Source: an uncultured Chloroflexota bacterium
GTDB lineage: Bacteria > Chloroflexota > Dehalococcoidia > CAUJGQ01
NCBI GenBank assembly: GCA_937879875.1
Contig: CALFMN010000154.1
Coordinates: forward strand, 2,071-66,070
Length of the DNA stretch: 64,000 bases
Reading direction: 5' to 3'
Shown here: positions 1-57,519 of the stretch, piece by piece
Position numbering within the stretch: position 1 is the stretch's first letter
Layout: each line of letters begins with the position of its first letter
The notes under the pieces: model-generated
What the model was told of the DNA's origin: nothing
The model's database searches: none
The model's input: only the letters and a program-made list of their open reading frames with translations
Position numbers and translations under genes: made by a program

Positions 1-830
1 CGGGCGCGCCACTCGACCACGGGCAACGCCAGCAGCTCGGCCAGCCGCAGCAGGCCGTGGAAGCCCGCCGCCGTGCGCCCACTGGCGCCGGTGATCACCA
101 GCGGCCGTTCGCTTTGAACGAGCCGGCGGGCTACGTCGCGCAGCGCATCCGGATCGCCCGCGCCCAGCCGTACGGGCGGCGCCGTTTGCGGGCGGCCGCC
201 GCCCGCCGCGGGGGCGCCGTTCGCCGGTGCATTCTGCATCAGCACCTCGCGCGGCAGGGTCAGATAGACCGGACCGGCCGGGTCACTGGCGGCGATCTGC
301 AAGGCGCGTGCCACGACCTCGCCGATCTGCTCGGCGCGGCGCAGCTCGTAGTCCCACTTCACGTAGTTGCGCACGATGCCGTGCTGGTCCATCTGCTCCT
401 GCAGCCAGTGGATGTAGCCGTCGCGGTGGCCGCGCAATGCCGGATCGGTGGTGTAGGGCGCGCGGCCGGCGCAGATTAGCACGGCGGCGTGGCCGCGCTG
501 CGCGTCGTGCAGCGTGCCCCCCAGGTTCTGCGTGCCCACGTCGACGTGCACCATCACCGCCTGCGGCCGGCCCGTGGCGGCGTAGTAGCCGTGCGCCGCG
601 GCCAGCGCCACGACCTCGAACAGGCAGAGCACGGTGCGCGGTGCGGGCTTGCCCAGCGCGGCGCACTTGGCCAGCGCTTCCTGCACTGGAAAGGTATCGG
701 TCCCGGGGTTGAGAAAGAGGCACTCGACGCCGTGCGCGATCAGCGCCTCGACGAACGCCTCGGCCGTCTCGGCGGCCCGCTCTGCCAGCGCCGTGCCCGT
801 GGAAGGGCTCGTCGGTCTGCTCTCTGCCAT
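1..830 (-). CDS. Thiamine pyrophosphate-dependent enzyme (acetolactate synthase/benzoylformate decarboxylase-like), 5' complete, truncated by window edge
   Basis: The reverse-strand frame from ATG at 828-830 is open to position 1. The translation MAESRPTSPSTGTALAERAAETAEAFVEALIAHGVECLFLNPGTDT...VYLTLPREV matches the TPP-enzyme N-terminal pyrimidine-binding domain. A GGAGGA ribosome-binding site lies 6 nt upstream. The ORF is not in the track because it runs off the window. Confidence 0.65.
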   Translation of the reverse strand, partial: MAESRPTSPSTGTALAERAAETAEAFVEALIAHGVECLFLNPGTDTFPVQEALAKCAALGKPAPRTVLCLFEVVALAAAHGYYAATGRPQAVMVHVDVGTQNLGGTLHDAQRGHAAVLICAGRAPYTTDPALRGHRDGYIHWLQEQMDQHGIVRNYVKWDYELRRAEQIGEVVARALQIAASDPAGPVYLTLPREVLMQNAPANGAPAAGGGRPQTAPPVRLGAGDPDALRDVARRLVQSERPLVITGASGRTAAGFHGLLRLAELLALPVVEWRA

Positions 831-4530: not shown

Positions 4531-6852
4531 TCACTCAGGACCCAGCGCTTGGGGTGGAATCGTGGCGGCCGGCGCTGGCGGCGGGCCTGTGCCGGGTTGC
4601 GGCGGGATCGTCGCGACCGGTGCAGGTACCTGAGCCGGCTGCGGCGGGGGCGGTAGGGAGGTCGTCGGCACACGGGCCGGCTGCACGGGCGGCGAGGTCG
4701 TGCTGCCGCCCCCACCGGTGTTCGCCGGTGCCGTGATGTGCACGGGCGCCGGCGGTGCCACCGAAGGAGCTGGCGCTGGGGTCGGTGCCTTCCGCGCCGC
4801 GGCGGCGCTTGAGTGCACGCTCGCCGCCGTGGCGAGTGCACCCAGCGGGTCGGCCACGGCAAGAGAGCTCGCCACGAACGTCACGCTCACATCATCCCCC
4901 GCCGCGAGGTCGTCGAAGCGTACCTGCGCGTCGAACGTCGTGCCGTCGCCCACGGCCGCGGCCGCCGTGCGCCCGTCCGCACAGGTCCATTGCAGCGCCT
5001 TGCCTGTCGCGCTGTGTGTGCTGGCGGTGAGCGTGCCGCTCGTGCAGTTCGGTGTAAGCTGCTCGCTGCCCGCCTGAAGGGTGCCGCCCTGCCAGGTGAG
5101 CAGCAGGCTCAGCTGCCCCGTGGGCTGGTCGTACTGTGGGTTCAAGCCGCTGGACGGCGGCGGATAGGCGTTCTCCGCCACGCCGACCGTCGCCGGCTGC
5201 CCGTCCGCGAGGTTAAGCGCGGCGTCCGGCGTGGTGGTGAGGTCAGCGAGGAGCGTGCCTTGCCGCCGCGCTGTATCCCACGCCAGCACGGTCAGACGCT
5301 GGCGGCGGCCGTCGAGTGTCACGGCGCTGAGGACCTGTGGTGCGCTGCCCTGTTCGAGCGAGCGCACCGCGTGCAGGGCCAGCGCCGGGTAACAGGTGCT
5401 ATCCGAACTTCGGTGCACGGGCGGCAGGAGGACGTTGTCGTGTGGCACGGCCGTCGCATCCCAAACGCGGATCCAGGTGCCGTCGGCAGCCGGGTGGAAG
5501 AGGTCGAGGTACGGCTGCGGACATCCATCCGCACCGGGCGCCTGGCTGAACAGGACGATCGTGCCGGGCCCGTTCCCCTCGGCGAGCAGGCCGCGTTGCA
5601 CGAGCTGGGCGCCGGGGCGCAGGAGCGCCGCGTCGGGCACCGCTGCTGCCGACAGTGGCGTCGGGGTCGGCGTCGGGGTCGGCGGCGGTGCCGGTGTGCC
5701 GGCCGATCCTTCCGTTGTGTCCGATGGTGTCGGAGCCGGTCGTTGCGCCGTGATCGGTGTGGGCCGGGCGCCCGCCCCGCCGGCGAGCCAATGCGTGCTC
5801 GCGATGGTGCCGGCGAGCACAAGGAGGAGTGCTGCCCCAGCGATGCTCGCCACGCGGCGGCGGTCCCGTGCGAGTGCCCCGCCCAGGTCGCCTGCTCGCT
5901 GGGTCGTTGCCGGTACAGGAGGCTCGCCGCGCGGGAGCGCTTCGGTGGGGGTGACCTCCACGGGCGGTTCGGGCAGCAGGGTCGCTACCGCTGGCGGTTC
6001 ATGCAAGAGCGGCAGCGTGCGTGATGGGAATGGCGGTGCCGGCCCGGCGGGTCGCAGTGCTGCGGCAAGGGCGGTGGCTGAAGCAGGGCGCGCGGCCGGG
6101 TCTTTGCTGAGCGCAGCCGCAATAACCGCATAAACGGCGTCGGGCAGCCCTGGGCGGATCTCCCGCAGGGGCGGTGGCGGCGTGTACACATGGGCGAACA
6201 GGACCTGCTCGGTGGGGCCGCTGAAGGGCGGCCGACCGCCGAGCAGCCGGTAGGCGAGCACCCCAAGTGCGTAGAGGTCTGTTTCTGGTCCGATCCGACC
6301 ACCACGAATCTGCTCCGGCGCCATCGCCTCCGGCGTGCCGACGATGTGCCCGGTCGGCGTGTCGCCCGGCTGCTCCAGGACAGAGGCGATACCCAGGTCC
6401 ATGAGCACCACCCGCCCGTCTTCTTGCTCCACGATCACGTTGGCGGCCTTGACATCGCGGTGGACGATGCCGTGGTCGTGGAGGTAGTCCAGGGCAGCCC
6501 CGAGCGGCGCCAGGACCGCCGCGACCTGGGCCAGGTCCAGCCCCTGCCCCGGCGCCAGCAGCCGGGCGAGCGTCTCACCCAACAGGAGCTCCATCGTGAA
6601 AAACGGCGCTCCGTCCAGGGCGCTCACGTCGAACACGGTGACGATATGCGGGTGGCGGAGCCGGGCGAGCCGGCGGGCCTCAGCCCGAAAGCGGGTTGTG
6701 GCCTGAGGGTCGGCGGCGATGTGTGGGTGCAGGAGCTTGAGCGCCACGTCCCGCCCCAGCATGCGGTCGGTGGCGCGGTACACCGTGGCGAAGCCGCCGC
6801 GTCCGAGGACGGCGTGGATGTCGTAGCGCTCAAACTGCGGCGGGGCGCCCAT
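4531..6852 (-). CDS. Hanks-type serine/threonine protein kinase, single-pass membrane, large Pro-rich extracellular region
   Basis: Motifs present: glycine loop GRGGFATVY, VALK, catalytic loop HRDVKAANV, DLG, GTPEAMAPE. A TM segment ALLLVLAGTIAS is followed by about 420 aa of extracytoplasmic sequence with PTPTPTP linkers. Confidence 0.9.
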   Translation of the reverse strand: MGAPPQFERYDIHAVLGRGGFATVYRATDRMLGRDVALKLLHPHIAADPQATTRFRAEARRLARLRHPHIVTVFDVSALDGAPFFTMELLLGETLARLLAPGQGLDLAQVAAVLAPLGAALDYLHDHGIVHRDVKAANVIVEQEDGRVVLMDLGIASVLEQPGDTPTGHIVGTPEAMAPEQIRGGRIGPETDLYALGVLAYRLLGGRPPFSGPTEQVLFAHVYTPPPPLREIRPGLPDAVYAVIAAALSKDPAARPASATALAAALRPAGPAPPFPSRTLPLLHEPPAVATLLPEPPVEVTPTEALPRGEPPVPATTQRAGDLGGALARDRRRVASIAGAALLLVLAGTIASTHWLAGGAGARPTPITAQRPAPTPSDTTEGSAGTPAPPPTPTPTPTPLSAAAVPDAALLRPGAQLVQRGLLAEGNGPGTIVLFSQAPGADGCPQPYLDLFHPAADGTWIRVWDATAVPHDNVLLPPVHRSSDSTCYPALALHAVRSLEQGSAPQVLSAVTLDGRRQRLTVLAWDTARRQGTLLADLTTTPDAALNLADGQPATVGVAENAYPPPSSGLNPQYDQPTGQLSLLLTWQGGTLQAGSEQLTPNCTSGTLTASTHSATGKALQWTCADGRTAAAAVGDGTTFDAQVRFDDLAAGDDVSVTFVASSLAVADPLGALATAASVHSSAAAARKAPTPAPAPSVAPPAPVHITAPANTGGGGSTTSPPVQPARVPTTSLPPPPQPAQVPAPVATIPPQPGTGPPPAPAATIPPQALGPE

Positions 6853-6854
6853 GA

Positions 6855-7544
6855 CTACCCGCTCTCCAGCGCACGCGGCGGCTCAGCCGCTGCGAGGCGA
6901 TAACCCAGCCCGCGCACGGTATGCAGGAACCGCGGGTTGTCGGCGTCGTCGCCCAGCTTGCGGCGCAGGCGGGAGATGATCTGCATCAGCGTCTCGTCCG
7001 CTACAGCCCCCTGCGCCTCCGGCCACAGGTGCTGCGCCAGCGCTTCCTTCGTTACTAACGCCGCGCGTTCGCGGTGGAGCAGCAGCAGCGTGCGGTACTC
7101 CTGCGCCGTGAGCTGGATCTGGCGTCCCCCGACCCAGACGGACGCACTCGCGAGGTCCAGCCGCAGGCCGTCCTCGTCAGCCTGGGCTGGCGTCCAGTCG
7201 GTGGTTTCGTCGGTTTCGAAGACGAGCCGCTGGCCCCCGAGCAGCAGGACGTCTCCGTCACGCAAAGAGTGCGGAGCAGCCAAGCGGGCACCGTTGAGGT
7301 AGGTCCCGTTCCTGCTGCCCAGGTCCTGCAATACGTACTGCTGCCCGTCCCACACCACCGCCGCGTGGCGCCGGGAGCTGCCCTTGCTGGTCAGCACGAT
7401 CGCGTTCTGCGGGTCCCGCCCGAGCGTGGTCGTCGCCGCGACGAGATCGTGCCGGGACCCGCCGTCGCGCCCATTCTGGTCAACCAGGTACGCCGTCACT
7501 CTGGTATCCCCAACGCCGGCCCCGCCGTGGATGGCGCGCGGCAC
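6855..7544 (-). CDS. FHA domain protein fused to OmpR/PhoB-type winged-helix DNA-binding domain
   Basis: The N-terminal FHA core is TLGRDPQNAIVLTSKGSSRRHAAVV...GSRNGTYLNG. The C-terminus LTAQEYRTLLLLHRERAALVTKEAL...FLHTVRGLGYRL is trans_reg_C-like. It abuts the kinase start with a 3-bp gap. Confidence 0.75.
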   Translation of the reverse strand: MPRAIHGGAGVGDTRVTAYLVDQNGRDGGSRHDLVAATTTLGRDPQNAIVLTSKGSSRRHAAVVWDGQQYVLQDLGSRNGTYLNGARLAAPHSLRDGDVLLLGGQRLVFETDETTDWTPAQADEDGLRLDLASASVWVGGRQIQLTAQEYRTLLLLHRERAALVTKEALAQHLWPEAQGAVADETLMQIISRLRRKLGDDADNPRFLHTVRGLGYRLAAAEPPRALESG

Positions 7545-7688
7545 CGTTGCACCTGGGCTCCATGCTGACAGTTCTGTCAGCTAACAGATAGCAGCATGCA
7601 TGCGCGTTGTCCAGCCCTGCCGGGCACGGAACGCTGACAAGGCTGACAGCCGGCGGAGAGGAACCTGGTAGCTGCCTGTCAAGCATCC

Positions 7689-7760
7689 GGCTGCGCGGCA
7701 CGCCACACTCAGAGTGAGCCCCACACCAGACGGGGCAGCACGCAGACGGAGGAACGAGCC
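7689..7760 (+). repeat. Leader repeat copy 1 (TGCGCGGCACGCCACAC...AGAGTGA...GGAGGAACGAG) preceding small ORF
   Basis: It is near-identical to 7921..7970. Copy 1 carries an extra insertion of about 24 nt. Both end in the same ribosome-binding site and start-codon context. Confidence 0.6.
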
Positions 7761-7907
7761 ATGAACCAGCAATCCCCCATCACGCCTCTGTCCCCTGCGG
7801 GGCAGCAGATACTGGAGATTTTCGGCGAACAAGCGTTGGTCGCGAGTTGGGGCCTCCAACAGCAGCCCCCGGCCGTCATCTACCACGGGGTCCCACGGCT
7901 GCGCTGA
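7761..7907 (+). CDS. Small ORF A, 48 aa (MNQQSPITPLSPAGQQILEIFGEQALVASWGLQQQPPAVIYHGVPRLR)
   Basis: ATG sits 7 nt after GGAGGAACGAG. It has no Cys and no signal peptide. It is too short for the ORF track. Confidence 0.35.
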   Translation: MNQQSPITPLSPAGQQILEIFGEQALVASWGLQQQPPAVIYHGVPRLR

Positions 7908-7920
7908 CGCGCTGCGCCCA

Positions 7921-7970
7921 TGCTGCGCGGCACGCCACACCGAGAGTGAACGCAGAAGGAGGAACGAGTT
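7921..7970 (+). repeat. Leader repeat copy 2
   Basis: GCTGCGCGGCACGCCACACCGAGAGTGAACGCAGAAGGAGGAACGAGTT ATG duplicates the 7689..7760 leader. Confidence 0.6.
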
Positions 7971-8132
7971 ATGCCTCGGGTCGATTTCAGCAGCAACGCA
8001 GGAACACCGCCCCGGCAGGGGCCGGTCGCGTTCCCCGTCCAGCAGAACCCGGTCGCTTTCGGCCTCGGCCCGGGGCCTTACCCGATTCCGGGCGCAGGGC
8101 TGCGCCCGCTCAACCTCATAGTGCCGGGCTGA
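7971..8132 (+). CDS. Small ORF B, 53 aa (MPRVDFSSNAGTPPRQGPVAFPVQQNPVAFGLGPGPYPIPGAGLRPLNLIVPG)
   Basis: It has the same ribosome-binding site and spacing as ORF A. It is Pro/Gly-rich with the repeated motif PVAF. Confidence 0.35.
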   Translation: MPRVDFSSNAGTPPRQGPVAFPVQQNPVAFGLGPGPYPIPGAGLRPLNLIVPG

Positions 8133-8262
8133 CCCCACGCAACATCCAACACCAGCGGCCACGACGTGTGTCCCTGTCAACCAGCTCGCTGCGCTGCGCC
8201 CCAGCGCTGCGGAGCACGGCCATGCGACTGGTCTATCGTCGCGGAGCGTGCGTGCCGGTATC

Positions 8263-9009
8263 TCAGTCTGTGGGAGCGGCGTAGGCCGCCGCCTCGCGCA
8301 TCGGGTTCCAGAGCGTCACGCCGGTGACGTCGTGCTCACGTAGTGCCTGCAGATAGGCAGGGATTTTGCCGCCGATCACGCTGCCGTGGTGGCAGGCAAG
8401 CGTTGCTGGGGCGAGCGCCTCAATTTTGTCGAGCGCTGCGTCCAGGTGGGCACGCGAGGGGAAGATGCCCACCATGCGGTAGGTCGCCAGCATCTCCTCC
8501 GTGAGGTCCTCGTCCGTCACCGCGGGCCGCGGCCCCGGTTGAATAAAGACATCCGAGGTGAAGACCGTGCGCGTGCTCTCGTCGTAGGCGAGCATGCTCT
8601 CCCACTGATGCACGTAGGGCGTGATGAGGAAGCGGAGGCGATGCTGTCCCAGGTCCAACACCGTCTCCTCCTCAACGGGCAGCGGCTCCCGGAGGGCGAA
8701 GTCCGCAAAGCTGGTGATCACGCCGACCGGGCTGCAAACGGCCTGCGCCTGCGGGGCGATGCCGAGGAAGCGATTCAGTGCGCCGCACTCATCCCCCTCG
8801 AAGTGCGGCGCGACGATGTAGCGGAGCTTGTTCAGGTCGATGAGCTTCTGGACTGCCTCCAGGCTTTCGTCGAAGAGCCGGGCGAAGCCGGTCTCTACCA
8901 GCGCCGGCTGGTCGTCCTTGATGACGAAGAAGCTGAAGGTCACGGGAGAATGGGGCACTGCGCTGTTCACCCGGTAGATGTCCGGCGCGACTTCCGCGAT
9001 CGTGGCCAT
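8263..9009 (-). CDS. MBL-fold metallo-hydrolase
   Basis: VAPHFEGDECGALNRF and HHGSVIGG match the HxHxDH-type beta-lactamase fold. The protein is 248 aa. Confidence 0.75.
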   Translation of the reverse strand: MATIAEVAPDIYRVNSAVPHSPVTFSFFVIKDDQPALVETGFARLFDESLEAVQKLIDLNKLRYIVAPHFEGDECGALNRFLGIAPQAQAVCSPVGVITSFADFALREPLPVEEETVLDLGQHRLRFLITPYVHQWESMLAYDESTRTVFTSDVFIQPGPRPAVTDEDLTEEMLATYRMVGIFPSRAHLDAALDKIEALAPATLACHHGSVIGGKIPAYLQALREHDVTGVTLWNPMREAAAYAAPTD

Positions 9010-12250: not shown

Positions 12251-12352
12251 CCGGCTGGTGACACTTGCAGGGGCGCATGGCATGCGCCCGTCGTGGCCGC
12301 AGCCGCGAGCAGCGGCGCGGCGCGTTCTCGACTCAACAGGGCTGGGGCCGAT

Positions 12353-12769
12353 CTACTGCGGCTCGCGCCGTGCGATGCCGGGAATGCGGTCGAAGTCGCG
12401 GTCGAAGCTGACCACGGCCGCCGCGCCGGTGCGCTCCACGTGCGCGGCGATCAGCGCGTCCTCGAAATCGATGTTCAGCGTCGCATACCAATCGAGCGCG
12501 CGCAGATAGGTGCCCTTGTGCGCGATGCTCACTCCCGGAAACATGAGCACGCCAGACAAGTACGCGCGAATGTCGTTGCGAGCAAGGTGATAGCGACGTG
12601 GCGAGCCGAGAACATAGACGACCTCGGCGAGCGTGGCTTCGACGAGGTCGGCGGTCTCCTGGCCGGTTTCCAGCTTGCTGAGGTAGGTACGGCACAAAGC
12701 GGCCCTGGCCGGATCGTCCTGGACGATCGGCCGGACGATGACGTTAGCGTCCAGATACGGGTTCGCCAT
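12353..12769 (-). CDS. vapC: PIN-domain toxin VapC
   Basis: MANPYLDANVIV has Asp7. A second acidic cluster is at DFEDALIAAHV and a third at SFDRDF. Confidence 0.85.
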   Translation of the reverse strand: MANPYLDANVIVRPIVQDDPARAALCRTYLSKLETGQETADLVEATLAEVVYVLGSPRRYHLARNDIRAYLSGVLMFPGVSIAHKGTYLRALDWYATLNIDFEDALIAAHVERTGAAAVVSFDRDFDRIPGIARREPQ

Positions 12770-13034
12770 GTAACTCCGCTATCTGGCGGGCGAACCGCTC
12801 TGCTCGTTCCTCGTGGACCTCTTCTCGGATCTGCTTCCAGGTGCGAGGAGGGTCAAGCGGCGGCGCGTACAGGTAGTATTTGTCGAGCACCGATTCCGCC
12901 TTCTCGATGCGCACACCCTTCTCATCTTCCACGAAACGCACGCGGTCCTTCGGTTTGACACCCAGCCAGCGGCGAAGCTCGGCCGGGATCGTCACCTGCC
13001 CTTTGGGGCTCACACGGCTGGTGTAGGTGGTCAT
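12744..13034 (-). CDS. vapB: AbrB/MazE-type antitoxin VapB
   Basis: SPKGQVTIPAELRRWLGVKPKDRVRF is a SpoVT/AbrB swapped hairpin. It lies immediately upstream of vapC and overlaps it. Confidence 0.8.
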   Translation of the reverse strand: MTTYTSRVSPKGQVTIPAELRRWLGVKPKDRVRFVEDEKGVRIEKAESVLDKYYLYAPPLDPPRTWKQIREEVHEERAERFARQIAELHGEPVSGR

Positions 13035-13095
13035 GGCTCTACATGCCCTGTCAGGTAAAACCTGCTGAAGATCGTCGAACGCATCATAACAGGTT

Positions 13096-47921: not shown

Positions 47922-50912
47922 TTAGCGTCGGTCCTTCAGCAGTTGCAGCCCAGTCGCCAGCGCCCCGAACGCGACGACGAAGCCGATCAAAATCACCCAG
48001 CGGCTGATCGCCGCGCCGTCGATGGCGGCGGTCTGCGGGAACTGCTCCGGGATAATCGCCAGCTTCACCACGCCCAGCACGCGCCCCAGCGCCTCATATG
48101 TCCAGCGCGTCGTCACCAGCGCGGCCAGCGGCTGCGCCGGGCCAAGATCCTTCACCGGCTGCAGGAGGCCGCTGAAGAGGATCTGCGGCAGCATGATCAG
48201 CGGCGCGGCGAACACGGCGCGGTCGGGATTCGAAACCCCGGCCGAAACCGCGAGGGCGAGCGCGACCGACGCCGCCCCGCCCAGGGCCAGCGACAACCAG
48301 GCGCCGGTCAGCCCGCTTGCCCCGCCCGGAAAATGAATGCGCAGCGCCGTGATGCCGATCAGCAGCGTCGACTGTACGACGATCAGCGCGAACAATACCG
48401 CGAACTTCGAAGCGACGTACGGAAAGACGCGCAGATTGACTACGCGCTCGCGCCGGTAGATGGCGTCCTCCTTCGAGATCTCGCGGATCGCGTTGAGCGT
48501 GCCGAGCCAGACGATCATCGCGGCCAAAATCAGTGCGAGCTGTGTGGCTTTGCCGGCGTTCGTATTGCCGTTACCGCTTGCCAGATCGCAGTCGCCGCTG
48601 AGGCCGAGCGCGGCGATGCGTGTCGGGCTGCAGTCCGGCCCGGTCACGGCGAGCAGCGTCGCATGTGAATCGACACCGCTGATCGCGCCGGTCCTCGGAT
48701 CAGGCGTCACGGGCCGCAGGACGCCATTGTCCTTGGCGAACACGAGCACGCCGCTCGGACGTGTGAAGACCGCGGGCTTGAACAGCAACCAGAGGAAGAG
48801 CGCGAAGATCGGCGCCTGCAGGAGCAGGATCAGCAGGTTCTTGCGATCGTTCAGCACGATATTGGCGTAGCGCCGCGTCAGGATCTGGAGCTGGCGCCAG
48901 GCCACGGGCTGCGGCCGGTGCTTGCCCGGACCGGCCGTTTCGCGGCGCGGCTGCTGCGGCGCCAGGGCGGCGGCGGCGCCCTGCGGATGCTCCAGCCGCG
49001 CCTGGATCTCGTACTGATAGAAGGGCGACGCCTGGAACGACTGTTCCCACTCCTCCGGCGATCGCGTGTTCTCGATCAGGTCGTAGATATCCTCGAACTC
49101 GGCCACTCCGAAGTAATCGAGCGCGGCCCGCGGCGGACCGAAGTAGGCGATGCGGCCGCCACGCGCCAGAAAGAGCGCCTTGTCGCAGAGCGAGACGTTG
49201 CGCGTGGCGTGGGTGATCAAGAGCACCGTGCGGCCCTGGTCGGCGAGCTGGCGCAGCAGCGCCATCATGCGCGTTTCCGTGCCCGGATCCAGGCCCGAGG
49301 TCGGCTCGTCCAGGAAGAAGAGCGGCGGGCTGGTCAGCAGCTCCACGCCGATGCTGACGCGTTTGCGCTGGCCGCCGCTCAGGCTGGCCACGATCGTCTG
49401 GCGCTGGCGCTGCAAGCCCAGCTCCTCGATCACCTCGTCCAGACGGGCGGCGCGCTCGGCGGGCGTCACGTCTTCCGGCATGCGCAGCTGCGCGGCGTAG
49501 TCCAGCGCTCGCTCGACGCTCAACTCCTTGTGGATGATGTCGTCCTGCGGCACATAGCCGATCTGTGCGCGCAACGAGTCGAAATGGTCGTAGAGCGAGA
49601 AGCCGTTCAGCAAGACCTGCCCGCTGGTCGCGGGCCGCAGGCCGCTGAGCGCGCCCAGCAGTGTCGACTTGCCCGCGCCCGAGACGCCGACCACGGCCAC
49701 GAACTCGTGCGGCTGGACGACGAGCGTGATGTCCTGCAGGATCGCCGTGCCCTTGCCGACGAGCTTGCGCAGGTTGAGCGCCTCCAGCAGGATGCCCGTC
49801 GTCTCGTCGAAGTGCTCGATCTCACCCTGGCGCACCGTCAGGCGGTACGGCCCGATGCGAATCACGTCGCCTTCGCGCAACTGGCGCTCGGCGATCGCCT
49901 CGCCGTTGACGTAGGTGCGGTTGGTGCTCTTGAGGTCGCTGATCACCCAGGGCGCATCGGCGGCGGCGCGGACGACGACGGCGTGCTCGCGCGACACCTG
50001 CGGCGACGGCAGCACGAGGTCGTTGCTGGCAACGCGGCCGACGGTAATCCGCGCCGCGCCGGGCTCGTGCGGTACCACGCGCGGCCGTGTATCGCTGCCG
50101 GGCGGAAGCGGTCCCGGTGCGAGCGGCGGCGCGCTGCCCCCGCGAGCCGGCTCGATCGCGGCAGTAGTGCCGAGCATGCTGGCAGAAGCGGGCGCCGGCT
50201 GCGGCTCGGCGCCGCTCTCTCGACGAAGTGCCTGGGTCACCGCGTCCGGATCGGTCGTGCCGCCCGGCGCCGCGACGAGCGTCTGCGGATCATCGGCGCG
50301 CAGGGCGAAGGTGATGGTCACAGCGCCGGAGAGCTGGAACGTTTCACCGTCGTTGAGCAGCGCTTCTTCGACCGGCTGGCCGTTGATCGAGGTGCCGTTG
50401 CGGCTGTGCAGATCGACGACCTCCCAGCGCTCGCCCCGCCGGCGCACCACCGCGTGATGCACCGAGACGGTCGGCAGATCGATGGGAATGTCGTTAGTGT
50501 TGCCGCGGCCGATCGTCACCTCATCGCGCTGCATGCGCACGCTGAAGCGACGGTTGGGCGTGTGGACGTAGAGCACGGGCCGGAAGTCGGTGTTCGTCGC
50601 GGTTGCCGGGCGTGCGGCCATGGCCGGCGCCTTCAGCGTGAGCTGAAACGAGCCGATGCCGATACGATCGCTGGGGCCGACCTCGGCCGTTTCGCTGCGC
50701 AGCACGCGTCCGTTCAGCGTCGTGCCGTTGGCGCCGCCCAAGTCTTCGACGAAGATCGACGCGGCCCGGCGCACGATGCGGGCGTGATGGCGCGAGACGC
50801 TCGCATCGGCCAGCACCAAATCGTTGTCGGTGGAGCGGCCGACGGTGATGTCGTCCTTGTCGGACGCCTCCTGGCGGGCGTCTCCGTCGCGTTCGATCAG
50901 CAGTTCGAGCAT
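47922..50912 (-). CDS. FHA(x3)-ABC ATPase-ABC-2 permease fusion (ABCG-like half transporter), paralogue 1
   Basis: Three FHA cores are VGRSTDNDLVL...GTTLNG, IGRGNTNDIPI...GTSING and VGRVASNDLVL...RTYVNG. Walker A is GVSGAGKST, the signature is LSGGQRKRVSIG, and Walker B is LFFLDEPTSGLD. A 6-TM ABC-2 domain is C-terminal. Start was taken at MLELLIERDG. Confidence 0.85.
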   Translation of the reverse strand: MLELLIERDGDARQEASDKDDITVGRSTDNDLVLADASVSRHHARIVRRAASIFVEDLGGANGTTLNGRVLRSETAEVGPSDRIGIGSFQLTLKAPAMAARPATATNTDFRPVLYVHTPNRRFSVRMQRDEVTIGRGNTNDIPIDLPTVSVHHAVVRRRGERWEVVDLHSRNGTSINGQPVEEALLNDGETFQLSGAVTITFALRADDPQTLVAAPGGTTDPDAVTQALRRESGAEPQPAPASASMLGTTAAIEPARGGSAPPLAPGPLPPGSDTRPRVVPHEPGAARITVGRVASNDLVLPSPQVSREHAVVVRAAADAPWVISDLKSTNRTYVNGEAIAERQLREGDVIRIGPYRLTVRQGEIEHFDETTGILLEALNLRKLVGKGTAILQDITLVVQPHEFVAVVGVSGAGKSTLLGALSGLRPATSGQVLLNGFSLYDHFDSLRAQIGYVPQDDIIHKELSVERALDYAAQLRMPEDVTPAERAARLDEVIEELGLQRQRQTIVASLSGGQRKRVSIGVELLTSPPLFFLDEPTSGLDPGTETRMMALLRQLADQGRTVLLITHATRNVSLCDKALFLARGGRIAYFGPPRAALDYFGVAEFEDIYDLIENTRSPEEWEQSFQASPFYQYEIQARLEHPQGAAAALAPQQPRRETAGPGKHRPQPVAWRQLQILTRRYANIVLNDRKNLLILLLQAPIFALFLWLLFKPAVFTRPSGVLVFAKDNGVLRPVTPDPRTGAISGVDSHATLLAVTGPDCSPTRIAALGLSGDCDLASGNGNTNAGKATQLALILAAMIVWLGTLNAIREISKEDAIYRRERVVNLRVFPYVASKFAVLFALIVVQSTLLIGITALRIHFPGGASGLTGAWLSLALGGAASVALALAVSAGVSNPDRAVFAAPLIMLPQILFSGLLQPVKDLGPAQPLAALVTTRWTYEALGRVLGVVKLAIIPEQFPQTAAIDGAAISRWVILIGFVVAFGALATGLQLLKDRR

Positions 50913-50970
50913 GGTCCGTCCATGATAGTCGTCACGATTCTGAAGGTCATCTGGCAACGTCGGCGGCGCA

Positions 50971-51178
50971 GGGCACCTAACCCCGCCGCGCCTGAAGGCA
51001 CGTCTCCCTTCCCGACACGGGAAGGGTTGGTCCGAGGATGGGTGAGAGCCCGCCGCGCGTCCCACAAGGACACCCCGGCTCCGCCGCCGTCCGCCGTCGG
51101 CGGGAACGCTCCAAAAGTCCCTTCCAGTTTCGGGAAGGGACAGACCTGGCTTCAGCCAGGGCAGGGTTAGGTGCCCCG
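50971..51178. mobile_element. MITE-like repeat, copy C, between FHA-ABC paralogues 1 and 2
   Basis: GGGCACCTAACCCC...GCAGGGTTAGGTGCCCC ends are present, with internal GTCCCTTCCAGTTTCGGGAAGGGAC hairpins. Confidence 0.6.
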
Positions 51179-51224
51179 CCCAGCGGCCAGCGTTCGCCCC
51201 ATTGCCGCGATCGACGGTCAGCCC

Positions 51225-54059
51225 TCATCGCCGGTCCTTCAGCCGCTGGAGGCCGACGGCCAGCGCACCGAACGCGGCGACGAAACAGAGCAGGATCAGC
51301 AGGCGCGTGATCGCCGTGCCGTCGGCGGCGTCCCGAAACTGAAACTTGCTGCGCAGCGTGGTGGCCGTCGAGACGACATTCGAGATCCGTGCGAGCGCCT
51401 CGAACGTCCAGCGGCTGGCGATCAGCGCCGCCAGCGGCTTCGCGACGCCGAGCTGACTCACCGGCACGAAGATCCCGGCGAAGAAGACCTGCGGCAGCAT
51501 GATCAGCGGCGCCGCAAACACCGCGCGGTCGGGGTTCGAAACGGCCGCCGAGACAGCCAGCGCCAGCGCCACGGCGGCGGAGCCGCCGAGCACCAGGCAG
51601 AGCCACATGCCGACATCAGCGCCGCCGCCGGGCATATCGACCTTGATGGCGACAACGCTGAAGAGCAAGGTCGCCTGCACGACCACCAGCGCCAGCAACA
51701 CGGCGAACTTGGACGCGATGTAGGGAAAGACGCGCAGGTTGACCAACCGCTCGCGCCGGTAGATCGCGTCTTCCTTCGAAATCTCGCGCACGGCGTTCAA
51801 CGTGCCCAGCCAAACCGCGGTAGCCGCAAGGATGAATGCGAGCTGAATCGCCTTATTCGCCTTCCAGTTGCCGTCGCCGCTATCGACGGCGCATGTACTC
51901 GACGGCGTGGGATTGCGAGGATCGCAGTTGCCGGTGAACGCCGCGGGCTGCGCGCCGAGCCGACCGACGGTGTAGCCCGGAGGCCGCTGAAAGAGGTTGG
52001 CCTGCGGAAACAGCGCCCAGAGCAGGACGGCGATAATCGGCGCCTGCAGCAGCAGGATGGCCAGATTCTTGCGGTCGCGCAACACGATCTCGCCGTAGCG
52101 CCGCGTGAGGATCGAGAACTGGCGCCAGGCCTCGTTGCGCGTGCCGTGCTGGCCCGGCCCGGCCGTGACCGGCCGCGACTGCACCGGCGTGGCGGCGGCG
52201 GCGCCCGGCGTGTTGACGATGCGGCTGCCGATCTCCGACTGGTACAGCGGCGAGGCGTGGAAGCGCTGCTCCCACTCCTCGGGCGAGCGCGTGTTCTCGA
52301 TCAGGTCGTAGATCTCGTCGAAGCGGCCGACGCCGAAGTATTGCAGCGCCATGTCCGGTGCGCCGAAGAAGGCGAGCCGCCCGCCGCGTGCCAGGAAGAC
52401 CACGCGGTCGCACTGCGCGATGTTCACCGTGGCGTGCGTAATCAGCAGGATCGTGCGGCCCTGGTCGGCGAGCTGGCGCAAGAGCGCCATCATGCGCGTC
52501 TCGGTCGCCGGATCGAGGCCGGACGTTGGCTCGTCCAGGAAGAAGAGCGGCGGCTTGGTCAGCAGCTCCACGCCGATGCTGACGCGCTTGCGCTGGCCGC
52601 CGCTCAGGCTCGCTACGACCGTGCTCTTCTGCGCCTCCAGCCCCAGCTCGCCGATCACCTCGGACACCCGCGCGTTGCGTTCAGCCGGGCTGGTGTCCGC
52701 CGGCATGCGCAGCTCTGCGGCGTAGTTCAGCGCCCGCTGCACGCTCAGCTCCTTGTGGATGATATCGTCCTGCGGCACGTAGCCGATCTGCTGACGCAGC
52801 GCGTCGAAGTGCTCGTACAGCGAGAAGCCGTTCAGCAGCACCTGGCCCTTTGTCGCCGGGCGCAGGCCGCTGAGCGCGCCCAGCAGTGTCGACTTGCCCG
52901 CGCCCGACACGCCGACGATGCCGACGAACTCATGCGGCTGCACCACCAGCGTGATCGGTTGCAGGATCGTCTTGCCTTTGCCGACCTGTTTGGTCAGGCC
53001 GAAGGCTTCCAGCAACATGCCGGCGGTCTCGTCGAAGTGCTCGATCTCGCCGTGCCGCACCGTCAGCCGAAAGGGGCCGATGCGTACGACGTCGCCTTCG
53101 GCGAGTTGCCGCTGTGCGACGGCGTCGCCGTTGACATACGTGCGGTTCATGCTGCCCAGGTCCGTAATCGACCAGGGCGCGCCCTCCGCCGGCCGCTCAA
53201 GCACCGCATGCTGCCGTGAGATCTGCGGCGAATCAAGCACCAGCTGATTCTGCGGCGAGCGGCCGATCGTCAGGTGGACGGCGCCGGGACCATGCGGGAC
53301 CAGCCCCTGCGTGCGCGGCCGCCCGCCCGACGAGACAGCCAGCGCCGCCGGTTTCAGGCGGAAGGTCAGCGCCACGTCGGTGCCGAGCGCGACGCGGTCG
53401 CCGTCGTGCAGCGGGGCCGACTCGATCTGCCGGCCGTTGACGAAGGTGCCGTTGCGGCTGCGCAGGTCGATCACCGTCCAGCCGTCGTCCTGGCGGCAAA
53501 CCATCGCGTGGCTGGCGGAGAGCGTGGGGGCCGCAAGGGAGATGTCGTTGCCAGGGCCGCGTCCCAGCGTCGCCTCGTCGCGCTGCATGATGAAGCTGAA
53601 GCTGCGCCCGTCGGCCTCGATCAGCAACTCCGGCCGGGCAGCCGCGAGATTCGCGGGCGTCGTCGCGCCCGGCGCTCCGGCGGCAGCAGTTTGACGCAGA
53701 TTGACGGCCGCGGGCGGCGGGGAAGGCGCGAAGCCGCCGGCGGCTGCCACTGTGCCGCCCAGCGGCTGACCGAGCTCGTACGCCGCGATGCGGTAGGCGC
53801 CGACGACGAACTCCTCGCCAGGCCGAATCTGTGCGGCTTCGGATCGCAGCAGGCGGCCGTTGAGCTGTGTGCCATTGGTCCCGCCGAGGTCTTCGAGATA
53901 GAGCGCGCCGTTGCGTTGCACCACGCGGGCGTGCTGCCGCGAAACGCTCTCGTCCGGCAGCACGATGTCGTTGCCGGGTGCACGGCCCAGGGACGCCTCC
54001 TCACGGGAGACCGTCTGTTCGCGCGATGCCGAACCACCCTCGATGCGAAAGCGCAGCAT
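51225..54059 (-). CDS. FHA(x3)-ABC ATPase-ABC-2 permease fusion, paralogue 2
   Basis: It has the same architecture and motifs as paralogue 1, for example GVSGAGKST and LSGGQRKRVSIG. It is 944 aa. Confidence 0.85.
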   Translation of the reverse strand: MLRFRIEGGSASREQTVSREEASLGRAPGNDIVLPDESVSRQHARVVQRNGALYLEDLGGTNGTQLNGRLLRSEAAQIRPGEEFVVGAYRIAAYELGQPLGGTVAAAGGFAPSPPPAAVNLRQTAAAGAPGATTPANLAAARPELLIEADGRSFSFIMQRDEATLGRGPGNDISLAAPTLSASHAMVCRQDDGWTVIDLRSRNGTFVNGRQIESAPLHDGDRVALGTDVALTFRLKPAALAVSSGGRPRTQGLVPHGPGAVHLTIGRSPQNQLVLDSPQISRQHAVLERPAEGAPWSITDLGSMNRTYVNGDAVAQRQLAEGDVVRIGPFRLTVRHGEIEHFDETAGMLLEAFGLTKQVGKGKTILQPITLVVQPHEFVGIVGVSGAGKSTLLGALSGLRPATKGQVLLNGFSLYEHFDALRQQIGYVPQDDIIHKELSVQRALNYAAELRMPADTSPAERNARVSEVIGELGLEAQKSTVVASLSGGQRKRVSIGVELLTKPPLFFLDEPTSGLDPATETRMMALLRQLADQGRTILLITHATVNIAQCDRVVFLARGGRLAFFGAPDMALQYFGVGRFDEIYDLIENTRSPEEWEQRFHASPLYQSEIGSRIVNTPGAAAATPVQSRPVTAGPGQHGTRNEAWRQFSILTRRYGEIVLRDRKNLAILLLQAPIIAVLLWALFPQANLFQRPPGYTVGRLGAQPAAFTGNCDPRNPTPSSTCAVDSGDGNWKANKAIQLAFILAATAVWLGTLNAVREISKEDAIYRRERLVNLRVFPYIASKFAVLLALVVVQATLLFSVVAIKVDMPGGGADVGMWLCLVLGGSAAVALALAVSAAVSNPDRAVFAAPLIMLPQVFFAGIFVPVSQLGVAKPLAALIASRWTFEALARISNVVSTATTLRSKFQFRDAADGTAITRLLILLCFVAAFGALAVGLQRLKDRR

Positions 54060-54139
54060 GATCGCCGCTTCTCATCCAACCACTGAATGCGTGCCTGTGA
54101 CGGCACCGGCTCATCGTCTGATCGTGGGAAACTGGCGGT

Positions 54140-57055
54140 TCACCGCCGGTCTTTGGTGCGTTGCAGCGCCGCGGCGAGCACGCCGAACGCCACGACGAAA
54201 CCCAGCAGGATCAGCCAGCGGCTGACAGCGCTGCCGTCGAGTCCGTCCCGGTACAGGAATACGGGCGGCAGCGCGGTCGCATTGATGATCCCGGCGGCGC
54301 GCCCAGCCGCCTCGAAGGTCCAGCGTGCGGTTGTGAGCGCCGCCAACGGCTGGGCCGGACCGAGCTTCGACACGGGCACGAGCAGCCCGGCGAAGAAGAT
54401 CTGCGGCAGCATGATCAGTGGCGCGGCGAACACGGCACGGTCGGGGTTGGAGACGGCGGCGGAGACGGCGAGCGCGACCGCGACCGAGGCAGCCCCGCCC
54501 AGCACCAGGGCGAGCCAGACGCCGGGCACGCCGCCCGCCGGTACCGGGACACGGATCAGCGCGACGCCGAAGAGCAGCGTCGCCTGGATGGCGACGAGAA
54601 CCAATAACACGGCGAACTTCGAGGCGATATAAGGGAAGACGCGCAGGTTCACCAGCCGCTCGCGGCGGTAGATGGCGTCTTCCTTCGAGATCTCGCGGAT
54701 CGCGTTCAGCGTGCCCAGCCAAACGGCGGTCGCGGCGAGGATGAAGGCCATGCGCGCGGCTTCGGAGGCGTTGCCGTTGCCGTTGCCCTGGTCCTGATGG
54801 CAGCCTGGTTCGTTAAAGGGATTGCCCCGATCGGAGCAACCCGTTCCTGTGAAGACGATGAAGGTAGGGACGTTGCTTTGACCCGATTGCCCGCCCGCGC
54901 CCTGGCGAAGACCGGGATTCCGTTTGAATTGCAACTCGGCTTGCTTCACCCCGACGGGATCGAGCGCGATCGGCCCCTGCGCGCCGTCTATGACGATTAC
55001 TGGATTGGGCGGCGCCTTGAACAGATTCCCATTGGTGAACAGCGCCCAGAGCAACACGGCGATGATCGGCGCCTGCAAGAGCAGAATCGCCAGGTTCTTG
55101 CGGTCGCGCAGCACGATCTCCGCGTAGCGCCGCGTCAGGATCTTGAACTGGCGCAGCGACTCCGACGGCTGGCGCGCCTGGCCCGGTACGTAGACTGCCC
55201 ACACTTTCGGCGCCGGCGCAACGAGCGCCGCCCCCGGCAGGTGTTCGATACGCTCGGCAATCTCGCTCTGGTAAAGCGGCGAGGCGGCGAACGACACCTC
55301 CCACTCCTCCGGCGTGCGCTGGTTCTCGATCAGGTCGTAGATGTCTTCGAACTCGCGCACGCCGAAGTAGTCGAGGGCAACTTTCGGTGCGCCGTAGAAG
55401 GCGACACGGCCGCCGCGCGCCAGAAACAGTACACGATCGCACATCGAGACGTTGCGCGTGGCGTGCGTGATCAGGAGCACCGTGCGGCCCTGGTCGGCGA
55501 GCTGGCGCAGCAGCGCCATCATGCGCGTTTCCGTGCCCGGATCGAGGCCCGAGGTCGGCTCGTCCAGGAAGAAGAGCGGCGGGCTGGTCAGCAACTCCAC
55601 GCCGATGCTGACGCGCTTGCGCTGGCCGCCGCTCAGGCTCGCCACCACCGTCTGGCGCTGCTGTTCGAGGCCCAGCTCGGCCAGTACCTCGCTCACACGC
55701 GCGGTCTTCGCGGCCGGCGGCAACTCGGCAGGCAGGCGCAACTCGGCCGCGTACTCCAGCGCTCGTTCGACCGGCAGCTCGCGGTGGATGATATCGTCCT
55801 GCGGCACGTAGCCGATCTTCGCGCGCAGCGCCTCGAAGTGCTCGTAGAGCGACATGCCGTTCAGCAGCACCTGGCCGGAGGTCGCCGGCCGGAAGCCGCT
55901 GAGCGCGCCGAGCAGCGTCGATTTGCCTGCACCCGAGACGCCGACCACGGCCACGAACTCCTGCGGCCGCACGACCAGCGAGACGTTGTTGAGGATCACC
56001 TTGCCGTTGTCGACTTCGCGCCGCAGGTTGAGCGCTTCGAGCAGGATGGAGGCCGGCTCCGGCTCGGCCGGGATCGGCGGTGGCGCCGGCGCGATCTGAG
56101 CAACCTCGACGATCCGCGGCGGTCGCGGCGCCTGCCGGTTCCCCCCGCCGAGCGGCCCCGCACCGCCCAGCGGTCCGACCCCACGCCGCGGCCCAGGCGC
56201 CGCGTCCGGCCGGGCCACGACGGCTGGACGCGCGTTCGGACTGCCGAGAGGGGGCACGGGCCGGAAGAACGACGCGCCCGCATCCGCTTCTCCCGGCGCC
56301 GGCGGCGCGGCCGCGATCTGCGCCACCGGCTCGCGCAGCTCTTCGGGCCGCACGGCCGCGGTTTCGACGAGCTGCGTCGCCTGCGGCTGCTGGCTGACCG
56401 GCACCTCGGTGCTCAGATGCGAGCTTTCCACGAAGCGAAAGATGACAGTTACGGAGTCTGCGAGCTGAAAGCGGGTTCCGTCTTTGAGCAACTCCTCCTC
56501 GATGCGCCGGCCGTCCATCTGCGTGCCGTTGCGGCTGTTGAGGTCGACGATCTCGAAACGGTCGCCCAGGCGGCGCACGACGGCATGGTGCGAGGAAACC
56601 GTACCCACGCGGACGGTGAGGTCGTTCGACTCGGCGCGGCCGATCGAGACCTGGTCATGCTCGATCGGATAGGTGAAACGGCCGTCCGGCGTCTCCACGA
56701 TCAGCATCGGCCGCGGCTGCGCGGGTGCTGGTGCAGCCGTGGCGCCCTGCTGTCCAACGAGCCCGACGTGCAATAAGGCATGGAGCTGGAAGGGGCCGAT
56801 GCCGACGAGGTCGCCCGGCTTCACCTCGGCCCAGGCGTTCATCAGCAGGTTGCCGTTGACGCGCGTGCCGTAGGTTCCCCACAGGTCTTCGACGTAGATG
56901 GCGTCGCCGTGGCGCCAGAGGCGGGCGTGGCGCAGCGAAACGCCCGCATCCGCCAGCACGACATCGTTGTCCGGCGCGCGCCCCAGCGTCACCTCATCCC
57001 GGTCAAGCATCTCCTCCCGAGACTGGCCGGCACCCGCGATTTGCAGCCGGATCAT
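54140..57055 (-). CDS. FHA(x2)-Pro-rich linker-ABC ATPase-ABC-2 permease fusion, paralogue 3
   Basis: Two FHA cores are followed by about 110 aa of Pro/Ala/Gly-rich linker, then the ABC and ABC-2 domains. Start was taken at MIRLQIAG. Confidence 0.85.
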   Translation of the reverse strand: MIRLQIAGAGQSREEMLDRDEVTLGRAPDNDVVLADAGVSLRHARLWRHGDAIYVEDLWGTYGTRVNGNLLMNAWAEVKPGDLVGIGPFQLHALLHVGLVGQQGATAAPAPAQPRPMLIVETPDGRFTYPIEHDQVSIGRAESNDLTVRVGTVSSHHAVVRRLGDRFEIVDLNSRNGTQMDGRRIEEELLKDGTRFQLADSVTVIFRFVESSHLSTEVPVSQQPQATQLVETAAVRPEELREPVAQIAAAPPAPGEADAGASFFRPVPPLGSPNARPAVVARPDAAPGPRRGVGPLGGAGPLGGGNRQAPRPPRIVEVAQIAPAPPPIPAEPEPASILLEALNLRREVDNGKVILNNVSLVVRPQEFVAVVGVSGAGKSTLLGALSGFRPATSGQVLLNGMSLYEHFEALRAKIGYVPQDDIIHRELPVERALEYAAELRLPAELPPAAKTARVSEVLAELGLEQQRQTVVASLSGGQRKRVSIGVELLTSPPLFFLDEPTSGLDPGTETRMMALLRQLADQGRTVLLITHATRNVSMCDRVLFLARGGRVAFYGAPKVALDYFGVREFEDIYDLIENQRTPEEWEVSFAASPLYQSEIAERIEHLPGAALVAPAPKVWAVYVPGQARQPSESLRQFKILTRRYAEIVLRDRKNLAILLLQAPIIAVLLWALFTNGNLFKAPPNPVIVIDGAQGPIALDPVGVKQAELQFKRNPGLRQGAGGQSGQSNVPTFIVFTGTGCSDRGNPFNEPGCHQDQGNGNGNASEAARMAFILAATAVWLGTLNAIREISKEDAIYRRERLVNLRVFPYIASKFAVLLVLVAIQATLLFGVALIRVPVPAGGVPGVWLALVLGGAASVAVALAVSAAVSNPDRAVFAAPLIMLPQIFFAGLLVPVSKLGPAQPLAALTTARWTFEAAGRAAGIINATALPPVFLYRDGLDGSAVSRWLILLGFVVAFGVLAAALQRTKDRR

Positions 57056-57087
57056 GCAGCGCTCCGTGGCCAGAGCTGGCCGGCGTG

Positions 57088-57519
57088 TCAATCTTCTTGC
57101 ACCGGCCAGCGCCAGTCTACCACGCGCTCCGGCTGAATGCGGATGACGGGCAGCTCTTCCAGCGCCATCTCACGATATTGCGGATAGCGTGCGCGCAAGG
57201 CCACGATCGCCGCGAGCTGCTCGCCGCCCGGCAGCACAATCTGCGCCGTTCCGCGTATCTGCAGCCAGCGCAGCCGGCGCCAGTCCTCGTCGTAGTCGTC
57301 AACCGTGAGACAGACGGCGGGATTTGCTGCGAGGTCACGGACGCGGCGCAGGCGCTCGACCGGCACGCGTTTCGGCTTGCGATCGAGCGGCGTGTAGATA
57401 GCGCCGCCGTAGAGCGCGAAGCAGACGGGCACGACGTGCGGTTTGCTCGCGCCGTCGGCCGTGGCGAAGTGCGCTACGCGATGCGCCAGCAGGAAGGCGG
57501 TCTGTTCAGGGGAAAGCAT
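57088..57519 (-). CDS. PPOX-class (pyridoxamine 5'-phosphate oxidase-like) probable F420-dependent enzyme
   Basis: MLSPEQTAFLLAHRVAHFATADGASKPHVVPVCFALYGGAIY is the typical split-barrel N-terminus. It is 143 aa and lies 33 bp upstream of FHA-ABC paralogue 3. Confidence 0.7.
   Translation of the reverse strand: MLSPEQTAFLLAHRVAHFATADGASKPHVVPVCFALYGGAIYTPLDRKPKRVPVERLRRVRDLAANPAVCLTVDDYDEDWRRLRWLQIRGTAQIVLPGGEQLAAIVALRARYPQYREMALEELPVIRIQPERVVDWRWPVQED

Follow-up and report, generated by a model that had tools for sequence, protein, structure and literature searches.

The DNA analysed here, referred to below as the window, is a stretch of 64,000 nucleotides (nt) on contig CALFMN010000154.1 of an uncultured Chloroflexota bacterium, and our subject is a 718-nt intergenic region within it (positions 7545-8262) that holds two tandem units, each consisting of a leader and a small open reading frame (ORF). 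ORF A (7761-7907, plus strand) encodes 48 amino acids (aa) and ORF B (7971-8132, plus strand) encodes 53, and the region lies beside a minus-strand operon of a regulator, a kinase and an fn3 protein. The regulator (6855-7544, minus strand, 229 aa) joins an FHA domain to an OmpR/PhoB-type winged-helix DNA-binding domain (wHTH), as indicated by Pfam matches to FHA, Yop-YscD_cpl and Trans_reg_C; NCBIfam places the two domains at residues 17-110 and 119-218, and neither Pfam nor NCBIfam finds a receiver domain or a BTAD in the protein. Its start is ambiguous (7499-7544, minus strand), in that the 229-aa form begins at a GTG codon and another source calls a 214-aa form (VTAYLVDQ...), near which the regulator homologues start. 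After the regulator gene comes that of a membrane Ser/Thr protein kinase of 773 aa (4531-6852, minus strand), an ordinary Hanks kinase with an N-terminal catalytic domain (Pkinase, residues 10-262, E = 2.7e-43) and a membrane segment.

The leaders of the two units resemble each other in two conserved blocks. Block 1 of leader A (GCTGCGCGGCACGCCACACTCAGAGTGA, 7690-7717, plus strand) is identical to block 1 of leader B (7922-7949, plus strand) at 26 of 28 positions, with an exact core of 19 nt, and the second block (repeat D3, 7740-7763 versus 7950-7973) is identical at 21 of 24, which amounts to a leader identity of about 90%. Block 2 of each leader proper (7740-7760 in A and 7950-7970 in B, plus strand) contains the Shine-Dalgarno (SD) sequence GGAGGA, at 7748-7753 and 7958-7963, and 8 nt separate GGAGG (at 7748 and 7958) from the ATG in both units, whose similarity ends 2 nt upstream of that ATG. 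Each block has exactly two copies in the window when up to three mismatches are allowed, compared with means of 0.39 and 0.06 in shuffled sequence. The duplicated leader and ribosome-binding site of the preliminary description are thus borne out, but its figure of about 55 nt for both leaders is not: leader A measures 71 nt and leader B 49 nt, the difference being due to a 22-nt insert (7718-7739, plus strand) that appears as an alignment gap and that folds into a hairpin of GCCCC (7718-7722) and GGGGC (7732-7736) around an N9 loop. Neither leader as a whole folds significantly better than shuffled sequence (z = -1.15 for A and +1.38 for B), and since the folding of leader B is weaker than that of its shuffles, its ribosome initiation region should be open. 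A search with Rfam 15 gave no match at the gathering threshold in the whole window and no family match in the 7545-8262 region even at E <= 10, the best scores there, 15.5 and 14.5 bits, staying far below the required gathering scores (70 and 35), and a search for leader copies in JGI metagenomes returned two chance matches without extended similarity.

The repeat extends beyond ORF B, where a truncated third copy (8175-8212, plus strand; repeats D1, D6 and D8) has a box and the start of the leader, TGTCAACC-N5-GCTGCGCTGCGC..., and neither an SD nor an ORF. Over repeat D1, 7675-7705 and 8173-8203 are 77% identical, and TGTCAACC-N5-GCTGCGC spans 8175-8203. The region can accordingly be described as three head-to-tail units, each opening with GCTGCGC, that repeat at periods of 232 and 266 nt. 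All seven copies of this heptamer between 7690 and 8200 are on the plus strand, against an expectation of 0.64 (P = 5e-6), and they include one at the opening of each unit and others close to the ends of both ORFs; tandem duplication may have used the heptamer as microhomology, or it may be a binding site.

The region had also been described as rich in TGTCAG repeats, and the counts agree: GCTGAC occurs 5 times in 7545-8262 where 0.37 are expected (P = 4.5e-5) and CTGACA 3 times where 0.07 are expected (P = 5e-5), making this the densest box cluster of the 64-kb window. Nearest to the regulator is the palindrome GCTGACA-N4-TGTCAGC (7564-7581), a putative operator of the FHA-wHTH regulator, which recurs at 16 of 17 positions (blastn) in L098, the locus of the closest ortholog (65% identical regulator). 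The distance from the palindrome to the start codon downstream of it would be ~65-80 nt for the 214-aa form and ~20-35 nt for the 229-aa form. Two direct GCTGACA boxes, 9 bp apart from start to start (7633-7648), account for part of the CTGACA enrichment and, because they are absent from L098, constitute a window-specific insertion. The promoter-proximal box of unit A is the element TAGCTGCCTGTCAAGC (7669-7684), which reads TTGACA on the minus strand, is identical to L098 at 15 of 16 positions and sits 33 nt upstream of AGAGTGAG. What the window and L098 have in common are thus the palindrome, as GCTGACA-N4-TGTCAG, and the element TAGCTnCCTGTCAAGC. The stop codons of ORF A (7903-7908, gcGCTGACgc) and ORF B (8128-8133, ggGCTGACcc) both fall inside GCTGAC boxes, so that each unit ends with a reverse-oriented box. 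Because the boxes co-occur with the regulator, are conserved, and in related loci show the 11-bp phasing typical of OmpR/PhoB-type domains, we infer that they are the regulator's binding sites.

As for the coding potential of the two units, both ORFs were called by the gene caller of the source. Each lies in the frame with the highest GC content at third codon positions (GC3) and the lowest at second positions (GC2), the values at positions 1/2/3 being 0.69/0.44/0.79 for ORF A and 0.74/0.57/0.81 for ORF B, and each has the best codon log-likelihood ratio of the six frames (0.036 per codon for ORF A, 0.002 for ORF B). The SD/ATG geometry is that of real genes in the window: of the other 19 occurrences of GGAGG-N(4-10)-ATG, 11 begin ORFs of 200 aa or longer and only 3 begin ORFs of <25 aa. 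The middle of ORF A (7803-7850) is locally AT-richer and uses codons that look rare at a genomic GC of 68% (ATA, ATT, CAA, GAA, TTG, AGT), which is likely why its codon score is low; such a stretch could indicate that the gene is young or was acquired, or that the sequence is non-coding. On the opposite strand, a 199-aa ORF (7581-8180, minus strand) was rejected as a gene, having no Pfam match and a flat GC3. The suggestion of the preliminary description that these are expressed units remains plausible: it is favored by the architecture of leader and ribosome-binding site and by the sharp end of the similarity at the ATG, which would fit a translation-initiation module under constraint, and it is weakened by marginal codon usage and by the lack of homologues.

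The two predicted peptides are not paralogues, as they are no more alike than shuffled sequence (p = 0.77 for the Smith-Waterman alignment and p = 0.50 for alignment of codon-shuffled coding sequences). They had been portrayed as mutually unrelated, Cys-free and biased in composition, and indeed neither contains Cys, 8 of the 48 residues of A are Q and 6 are P, and B has 12 P and 8 G among its 53 residues. The repeated PVAF of peptide B is likewise real, and its two occurrences result from a 27-nt internal duplication (direct repeat 8012-8033/8039-8060). No hydrophobic segment was found in either peptide (maximal 19-aa hydropathy 0.64 in A and 0.42 in B; SignalP was not run), and neither has the hydrophobic transmembrane helix of a type I toxin or small membrane protein. 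Each peptide has one Thr with Pro next to it (ITPL in A, GTPP in B). Single-sequence AlphaFold2 models give two short helices for A (residues 12-31, pLDDT 69) and no secondary structure for B (pTM 0.14), both at low confidence and not discriminating. Tryptic digestion would yield VDFSSNAGTPPR and QGPVAFPVQQNPVAFGLGPGPYPIPGAGLR from B and a single 45-residue peptide from A.

We then compared the contexts of regulator homologues with the same FHA-wHTH architecture, labeled L082 to L099. Three locus types (L082-84, L092/93 and L094/97), whose regulators show 49-52% identity, have small genes encoding 49-58 aa directly next to the regulator and divergent from it. On the contigs that include the gene downstream of the regulator, this is the same kinase in L082-84 and L092; L094 has a convergent solute-binding protein gene there. 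The small genes of L082-84, L092-94 and L097 form one conserved family, each with the ribosome site AAGGAGC and with the consensus M..LF...L....LNPFAGF..ARTA...L.ELQxPEGxRGxG...TG; a 120-aa form with the same C-terminus also exists. This LNPF...ELQxPEG family, which has apparently not been named before, has no Pfam or NCBIfam matches, and its peptides end in [ST]-x-[ST]-G. For most pairs the ratio of nonsynonymous to synonymous substitution rates (dN/dS) falls around 0.57-0.84, rising to about 1.1 in the pair that has diverged most. Its ELQ motif presumably resembles the leaders of class III lanthipeptides. Family copies lie at 2398-4833 of L083 (minus strand, five copies), at 481-657 of L092 and at 754-930 of L094; in L083, which comes from the same sample as the window, the copies are followed by genes for secreted and membrane proteins and by a GvpL/GvpF gas-vesicle gene.

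The family genes share a promoter layout of four GTCAGC/GTCAAC/GTCAGG boxes at 11-bp spacing, followed by (C)AGTGTGAGC 35 nt past the last box and then by a hairpin (L083 4860-4985 and 2850-2975, L092 700-800, L094 980-1080; all minus strand). The 35-nt distance was computed for three promoters and counted by hand for that of L094. The hairpin, GCYGC-N7-GCRGC, has a 5-bp stem with one compensatory double change (GCCGC/GCGGC to GCTGC/GCAGC), and inside L083 the whole promoter/leader is doubled, standing before two gene pairs. We consider it likely from these sequence features that the element comprising the four boxes, AGTGTGAGC and the hairpin is the operator and promoter of this FHA-wHTH clade. 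Unit A of the window has the same leader layout, reading GTCAAG, 33 nt, (C)AGAGTGAGC (9 of 10 positions matching), hairpin, SD and ATG: block 1 of leader A includes CAGAGTGAGC, which agrees with CAGTGTGAGC of the related loci at 9 of 10 positions, and the offset of the hairpin after the GTGA motif is the same in unit A as in the leaders of L083, L092 and L094. Unit B is without a forward box and without a hairpin.

Elsewhere among the homologues, the slot occupied by the two ORFs in the window holds a guanylate kinase gene, an FHA protein, a gene fragment or an operon partner. Box clusters are present in L083, L092, L094, L098 and the window and absent from L099 and L089; because they track the loci with a divergent target, we regard the boxes and the leader layout as the conserved features and the encoded content as variable. 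In L099 a 43-aa ORF (298-429, minus strand; ...WLCAEAASFVTGVSLASV...) is divergent from the regulator, and (GCTGC)x3 stands immediately 5' of its ribosome site; by eye it resembles a C-terminal fragment of a short-chain dehydrogenase and is thus probably a gene remnant. The preliminary description had asked whether homologous small ORFs always flank such regulator/kinase pairs, and the answer is mixed, in that three homologous locus types do have divergent 49-58-aa genes but the closest ortholog has none, and A and B do not belong to the family.

What the sequences show directly is the repeat, the spacing of SD and ATG, the clustering of the boxes and the fact that small-peptide genes recur behind the same leader layout at homologous regulators, whereas transcription, translation, regulator binding and the roles of the peptides are our inference. 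Our tentative preference is to regard A and B as separately initiated, regulator-controlled and fast-evolving mini-protein genes that would be expressed, a reading that seems to us quite possible but falls somewhat short of being probable. A considerable body of evidence weighs against it. The closest ortholog, L098, has a gene for an FAD enzyme and no small ORF in the corresponding position (no remnant of that enzyme gene gave a tblastn signal in the region), and in L085, the locus of the 60% homologue, the regulator lacks a divergent partner altogether. The window arranges its boxes as one inverted pair, one direct pair at 9 bp and single boxes, not as the 11-bp direct repeats of its relatives, and unit B has no forward box. 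A and B could be dismissed as members of the LNPF...ELQxPEG family, since hhalign gave a probability of 0.1% for A or B against it and no profile similarity, and since a hidden Markov model (HMM) of the family searched against the six-frame translation of the window found nothing significant anywhere (best E = 0.51) and, among the matches listed, up to E of about 40, none to 7545-8262. Both are orphans: a word-indexed homology search gave self matches only among 5.8e9 clustered proteins, and HMMER run with A on 1.8e9 representatives gave just one fn3-repeat and one WD40-repeat protein. We discount these two matches as chance, because they involve short motifs (ASWG..PPA..Y, SPxGQQIL) with scores inflated by repeat summation, the two proteins have unrelated folds, Pfam gives no fn3 match to A, and A is unlike the window's own fn3 protein. 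Measured against real genes in chunks of 50 codons, A and B reach only the 5th percentile in codon score, a level also attained by 17-23% of the spurious small ORFs nested within real genes; a Pro/Gly-rich, disordered product such as B is also typical of translated GC-rich non-coding DNA. Scans of the region detected neither a sigma-70-type promoter nor an intrinsic terminator, so the promoter that had been described as duplicated is conjectural. A weak -10-like nAGWGT may lie within the conserved leader motif. A sigma-54 promoter was rejected on inspection, as the leader has GGCACG but ACTC/ACCG in place of TTGC at the -12 element. Finally, a JGI contig assembled independently (Ga0212123_10003046) is 100% identical over 17.5 kb, which shows that the region is no assembly artefact and at the same time leaves no polymorphism for a test of selection and no ratio of nonsynonymous to synonymous polymorphism (pN/pS), all available copies of the locus being identical and the other contigs that carry it encoding identical peptides.

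Alternatively, the region could be non-coding cis-regulatory DNA, with operator and promoter repeats serving the regulator operon or non-coding transcripts and with ORFs that are accidents of a 68% GC sequence and by chance come after a purine run resembling an SD. Besides the orphan status and marginal codon usage of both ORFs, this explanation draws on the closest ortholog, which keeps the operator motifs and has no small ORF, on the enrichment of GCTGCGC (7) and GCTGAC (5) on one strand over 718 nt, inside the ORFs and over both stops, and on the truncated third copy without an ORF. Against it speak an SD and ATG at ideal spacing twice over, similarity that ends at the ATG, and the placement of each ORF in the best coding frame of six, and homologous loci have real small genes in the same slot with the same leader layout; moreover, neither a structured RNA nor an Rfam family was found in the region. 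We take this explanation seriously while judging it less likely than not. Improbable in our estimation is that the units are decaying tandem copies of a small gene, perhaps once of the LNPF...ELQxPEG family, whose leaders were kept by selection or gene conversion. The three head-to-tail units starting with GCTGCGC, the last of them truncated, would suit such a history, as would the leader layout common to the family loci, the fast evolution of the family seen in its dN/dS values and the gene fragment in the L099 slot. Against decay, no residual similarity links A to B or either of them to the family, and in both units the ATG, the SD and the open frame are intact and the frame-specific GC3 has been kept.

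Two further options from the preliminary description fare worse. If A and B were precursors of peptides of the type that is ribosomally synthesized and post-translationally modified (RiPP), or of quorum-type peptides, their small size, the presence of two variants behind one leader, the adjacent sensor kinase and the presumed lanthipeptide-like ELQ motif of the related family would make sense, but the adjacent genes include no modifying enzyme, protease or exporter, the kinase is of the ordinary Hanks type and not LanKC/LanL-like, and the peptides have no Cys, no signal or export motif and no match to precursor families in Pfam or NCBIfam; this proposal is unsupported, and we give it very little credence. 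The same very low credence goes to the idea that the ORFs are attenuator leader peptides, or else the 5' portions of small RNAs or of a riboswitch. Short ORFs after a conserved untranslated leader and a hairpin in unit A are what one might look for in that case. As attenuator leader peptides they are disfavored, given that the next gene is convergent, so that no co-directional gene lies downstream, and that no terminator-like hairpin was found; a small RNA or known non-coding RNA is disfavored too, the leaders folding no better than shuffles, unit B lacking the hairpin, Rfam giving no match and the JGI metagenomes no more leader copies.

With respect to the wider surroundings, the window falls within metagenome contig k141_81735 (ENA ERZ27245795; 69.8 kb, GC 68%), from which Pfam labels and gene calls were taken. 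Downstream of ORF B, after 130 nt, comes the end of a convergent gene for an ODP di-iron protein (8263-9009, minus strand), and the gene list names TetR, an amidohydrolase and a further hydrolase among the other neighbors. A contig from the cluster of amidohydrolases at least 90% identical was considered as a source of variation and set aside as not syntenic, and a scan of GTDB genomes with the regulator gave distant wHTH-domain matches only and no usable synteny. A few kb from the units, at about 12350-13040, Pfam labels indicate a pair of a MazE antitoxin and a PIN-domain protein. Farther on (47922-57091, minus strand) are three tandem genes of about 950-1050 aa, each with two or three N-terminal FHA domains, an ABC ATPase and an ABC-2 membrane domain, which we take to be Rv1747-like. 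The organism appears to invest heavily in Ser/Thr-kinase/FHA signaling.

Among described systems, the AfsK/AfsR/AfsS system of Streptomyces offers the closest functional parallel, as there a Ser/Thr kinase controls a winged-helix factor (OmpR-type fold) that activates an adjacent tiny gene, the afsS promoters are conserved although the proteins are just 17-38% identical and contain internal repeats, and AfsS feeds back by binding AfsR (PMC10832544). The likeness to the window, where it is known from sequence alone, consists in a kinase, a winged-helix regulator and one or more adjacent very small genes, and the leader conserved between two units with different ORFs recalls the afsS promoter, which is more conserved than the protein. 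The differences are nonetheless substantial. AfsR has a SARP-NOD-TPR architecture without FHA, whereas the regulator of the window has FHA and wHTH only; afsS is located 3' of afsR in the same orientation, whereas the ORFs of the window are divergent and paired; and repeats of the AfsS type are not recognizable in the window, where the doubled PVAF of B is the only repeated motif and A shows none. The phylum is also another one, namely Chloroflexota. A second parallel is PknH/EmbR of Mycobacterium tuberculosis, which pairs a Hanks-type membrane kinase with a factor made of an OmpR-type winged helix and FHA (PMC8636726, PMC9239209). The pair in the window likewise consists of a membrane Hanks kinase and an FHA/winged-helix regulator, but the domain order of EmbR is wHTH-BTAD-FHA and that of the regulator is FHA-wHTH without a BTAD, so that the latter is not of the EmbR type, and EmbR targets the embCAB arabinosyltransferase genes rather than mini-ORFs.

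The window also resembles the LNPF...ELQxPEG loci, with which it has in common the divergent slot, the size range of 49-58 aa, a strong SD and a doubled promoter/leader, as within L083, and with which unit A shares the leader layout of a box, 33-35 nt, AG(A/T)GTGAGC, a hairpin and an SD; the four direct boxes at 11 bp are a feature of those loci, and A and B have no sequence or profile similarity to the family. Operators of OmpR/PhoB-type regulators are direct repeats spaced one helical turn apart. The Trans_reg_C domain of the regulator is in keeping with this type, as are the 11-bp phased repeats that in the related loci lie upstream of an activator-type promoter without a -35 element. In the window, on the other hand, the boxes are not phased at 11 bp, and because the regulator has no receiver, control would run via FHA and phospho-threonine and not via phosphorylation of Asp.

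A possible mechanism under our preferred reading, in which A and B are regulator-controlled mini-protein genes, would be as follows. The two ORFs would occupy the divergent target slot of the pair of Ser/Thr kinase and FHA-winged-helix regulator, and the duplicated leader would provide a common promoter-proximal region and a 5' untranslated region with SD, placing both under the same transcriptional and translational control. The membrane kinase would sense a signal and, by analogy with PknH and EmbR, act through the FHA domain, where phospho-threonine signaling would alter the binding of the regulator to DNA at the GTCAGC/TGTCAA-type boxes; this binding would set transcription of the small genes and probably also of the regulator's own operon. 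The products would be modulators rather than enzymes, as AfsS is with AfsK/AfsR, the models hinting at a short helical core in A and disorder in B. A bolder version, which strikes us as a long shot, is that the mini-proteins are substrates of the kinase and phospho-threonine ligands of the FHA domain that feed back on their own promoter, as part of an undescribed three-part module of uncultivated high-GC bacteria; the lone Thr-Pro of each peptide and the [ST]-x-[ST]-G ending of the related family prompt this idea. On this bolder version, two unrelated orphan ORFs would stand behind one leader because the promoter/leader is conserved and the coding part is replaceable or diverging.

In the literature we found no functional study of an FHA domain directly fused to an OmpR-type DNA-binding domain, and the conserved module of FHA-wHTH regulator, kinase and mini-protein, together with its box motif, is a more valuable lead than the two ORFs of the window. 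The GTCAGC-type boxes, 11-bp phased in the relatives, and the layout of the target promoters can now be defined and tested. If A and B are not expressed, the finding would come down to the remnant of a duplicated operator and leader, seen in a single uncultivated lineage. If they are expressed, they would provide a case outside the Actinobacteria of a winged-helix regulator under Ser/Thr-kinase control that drives adjacent, fast-evolving mini-protein genes, and the reuse of one promoter/leader before unrelated short ORFs bears on the origin of new small proteins.

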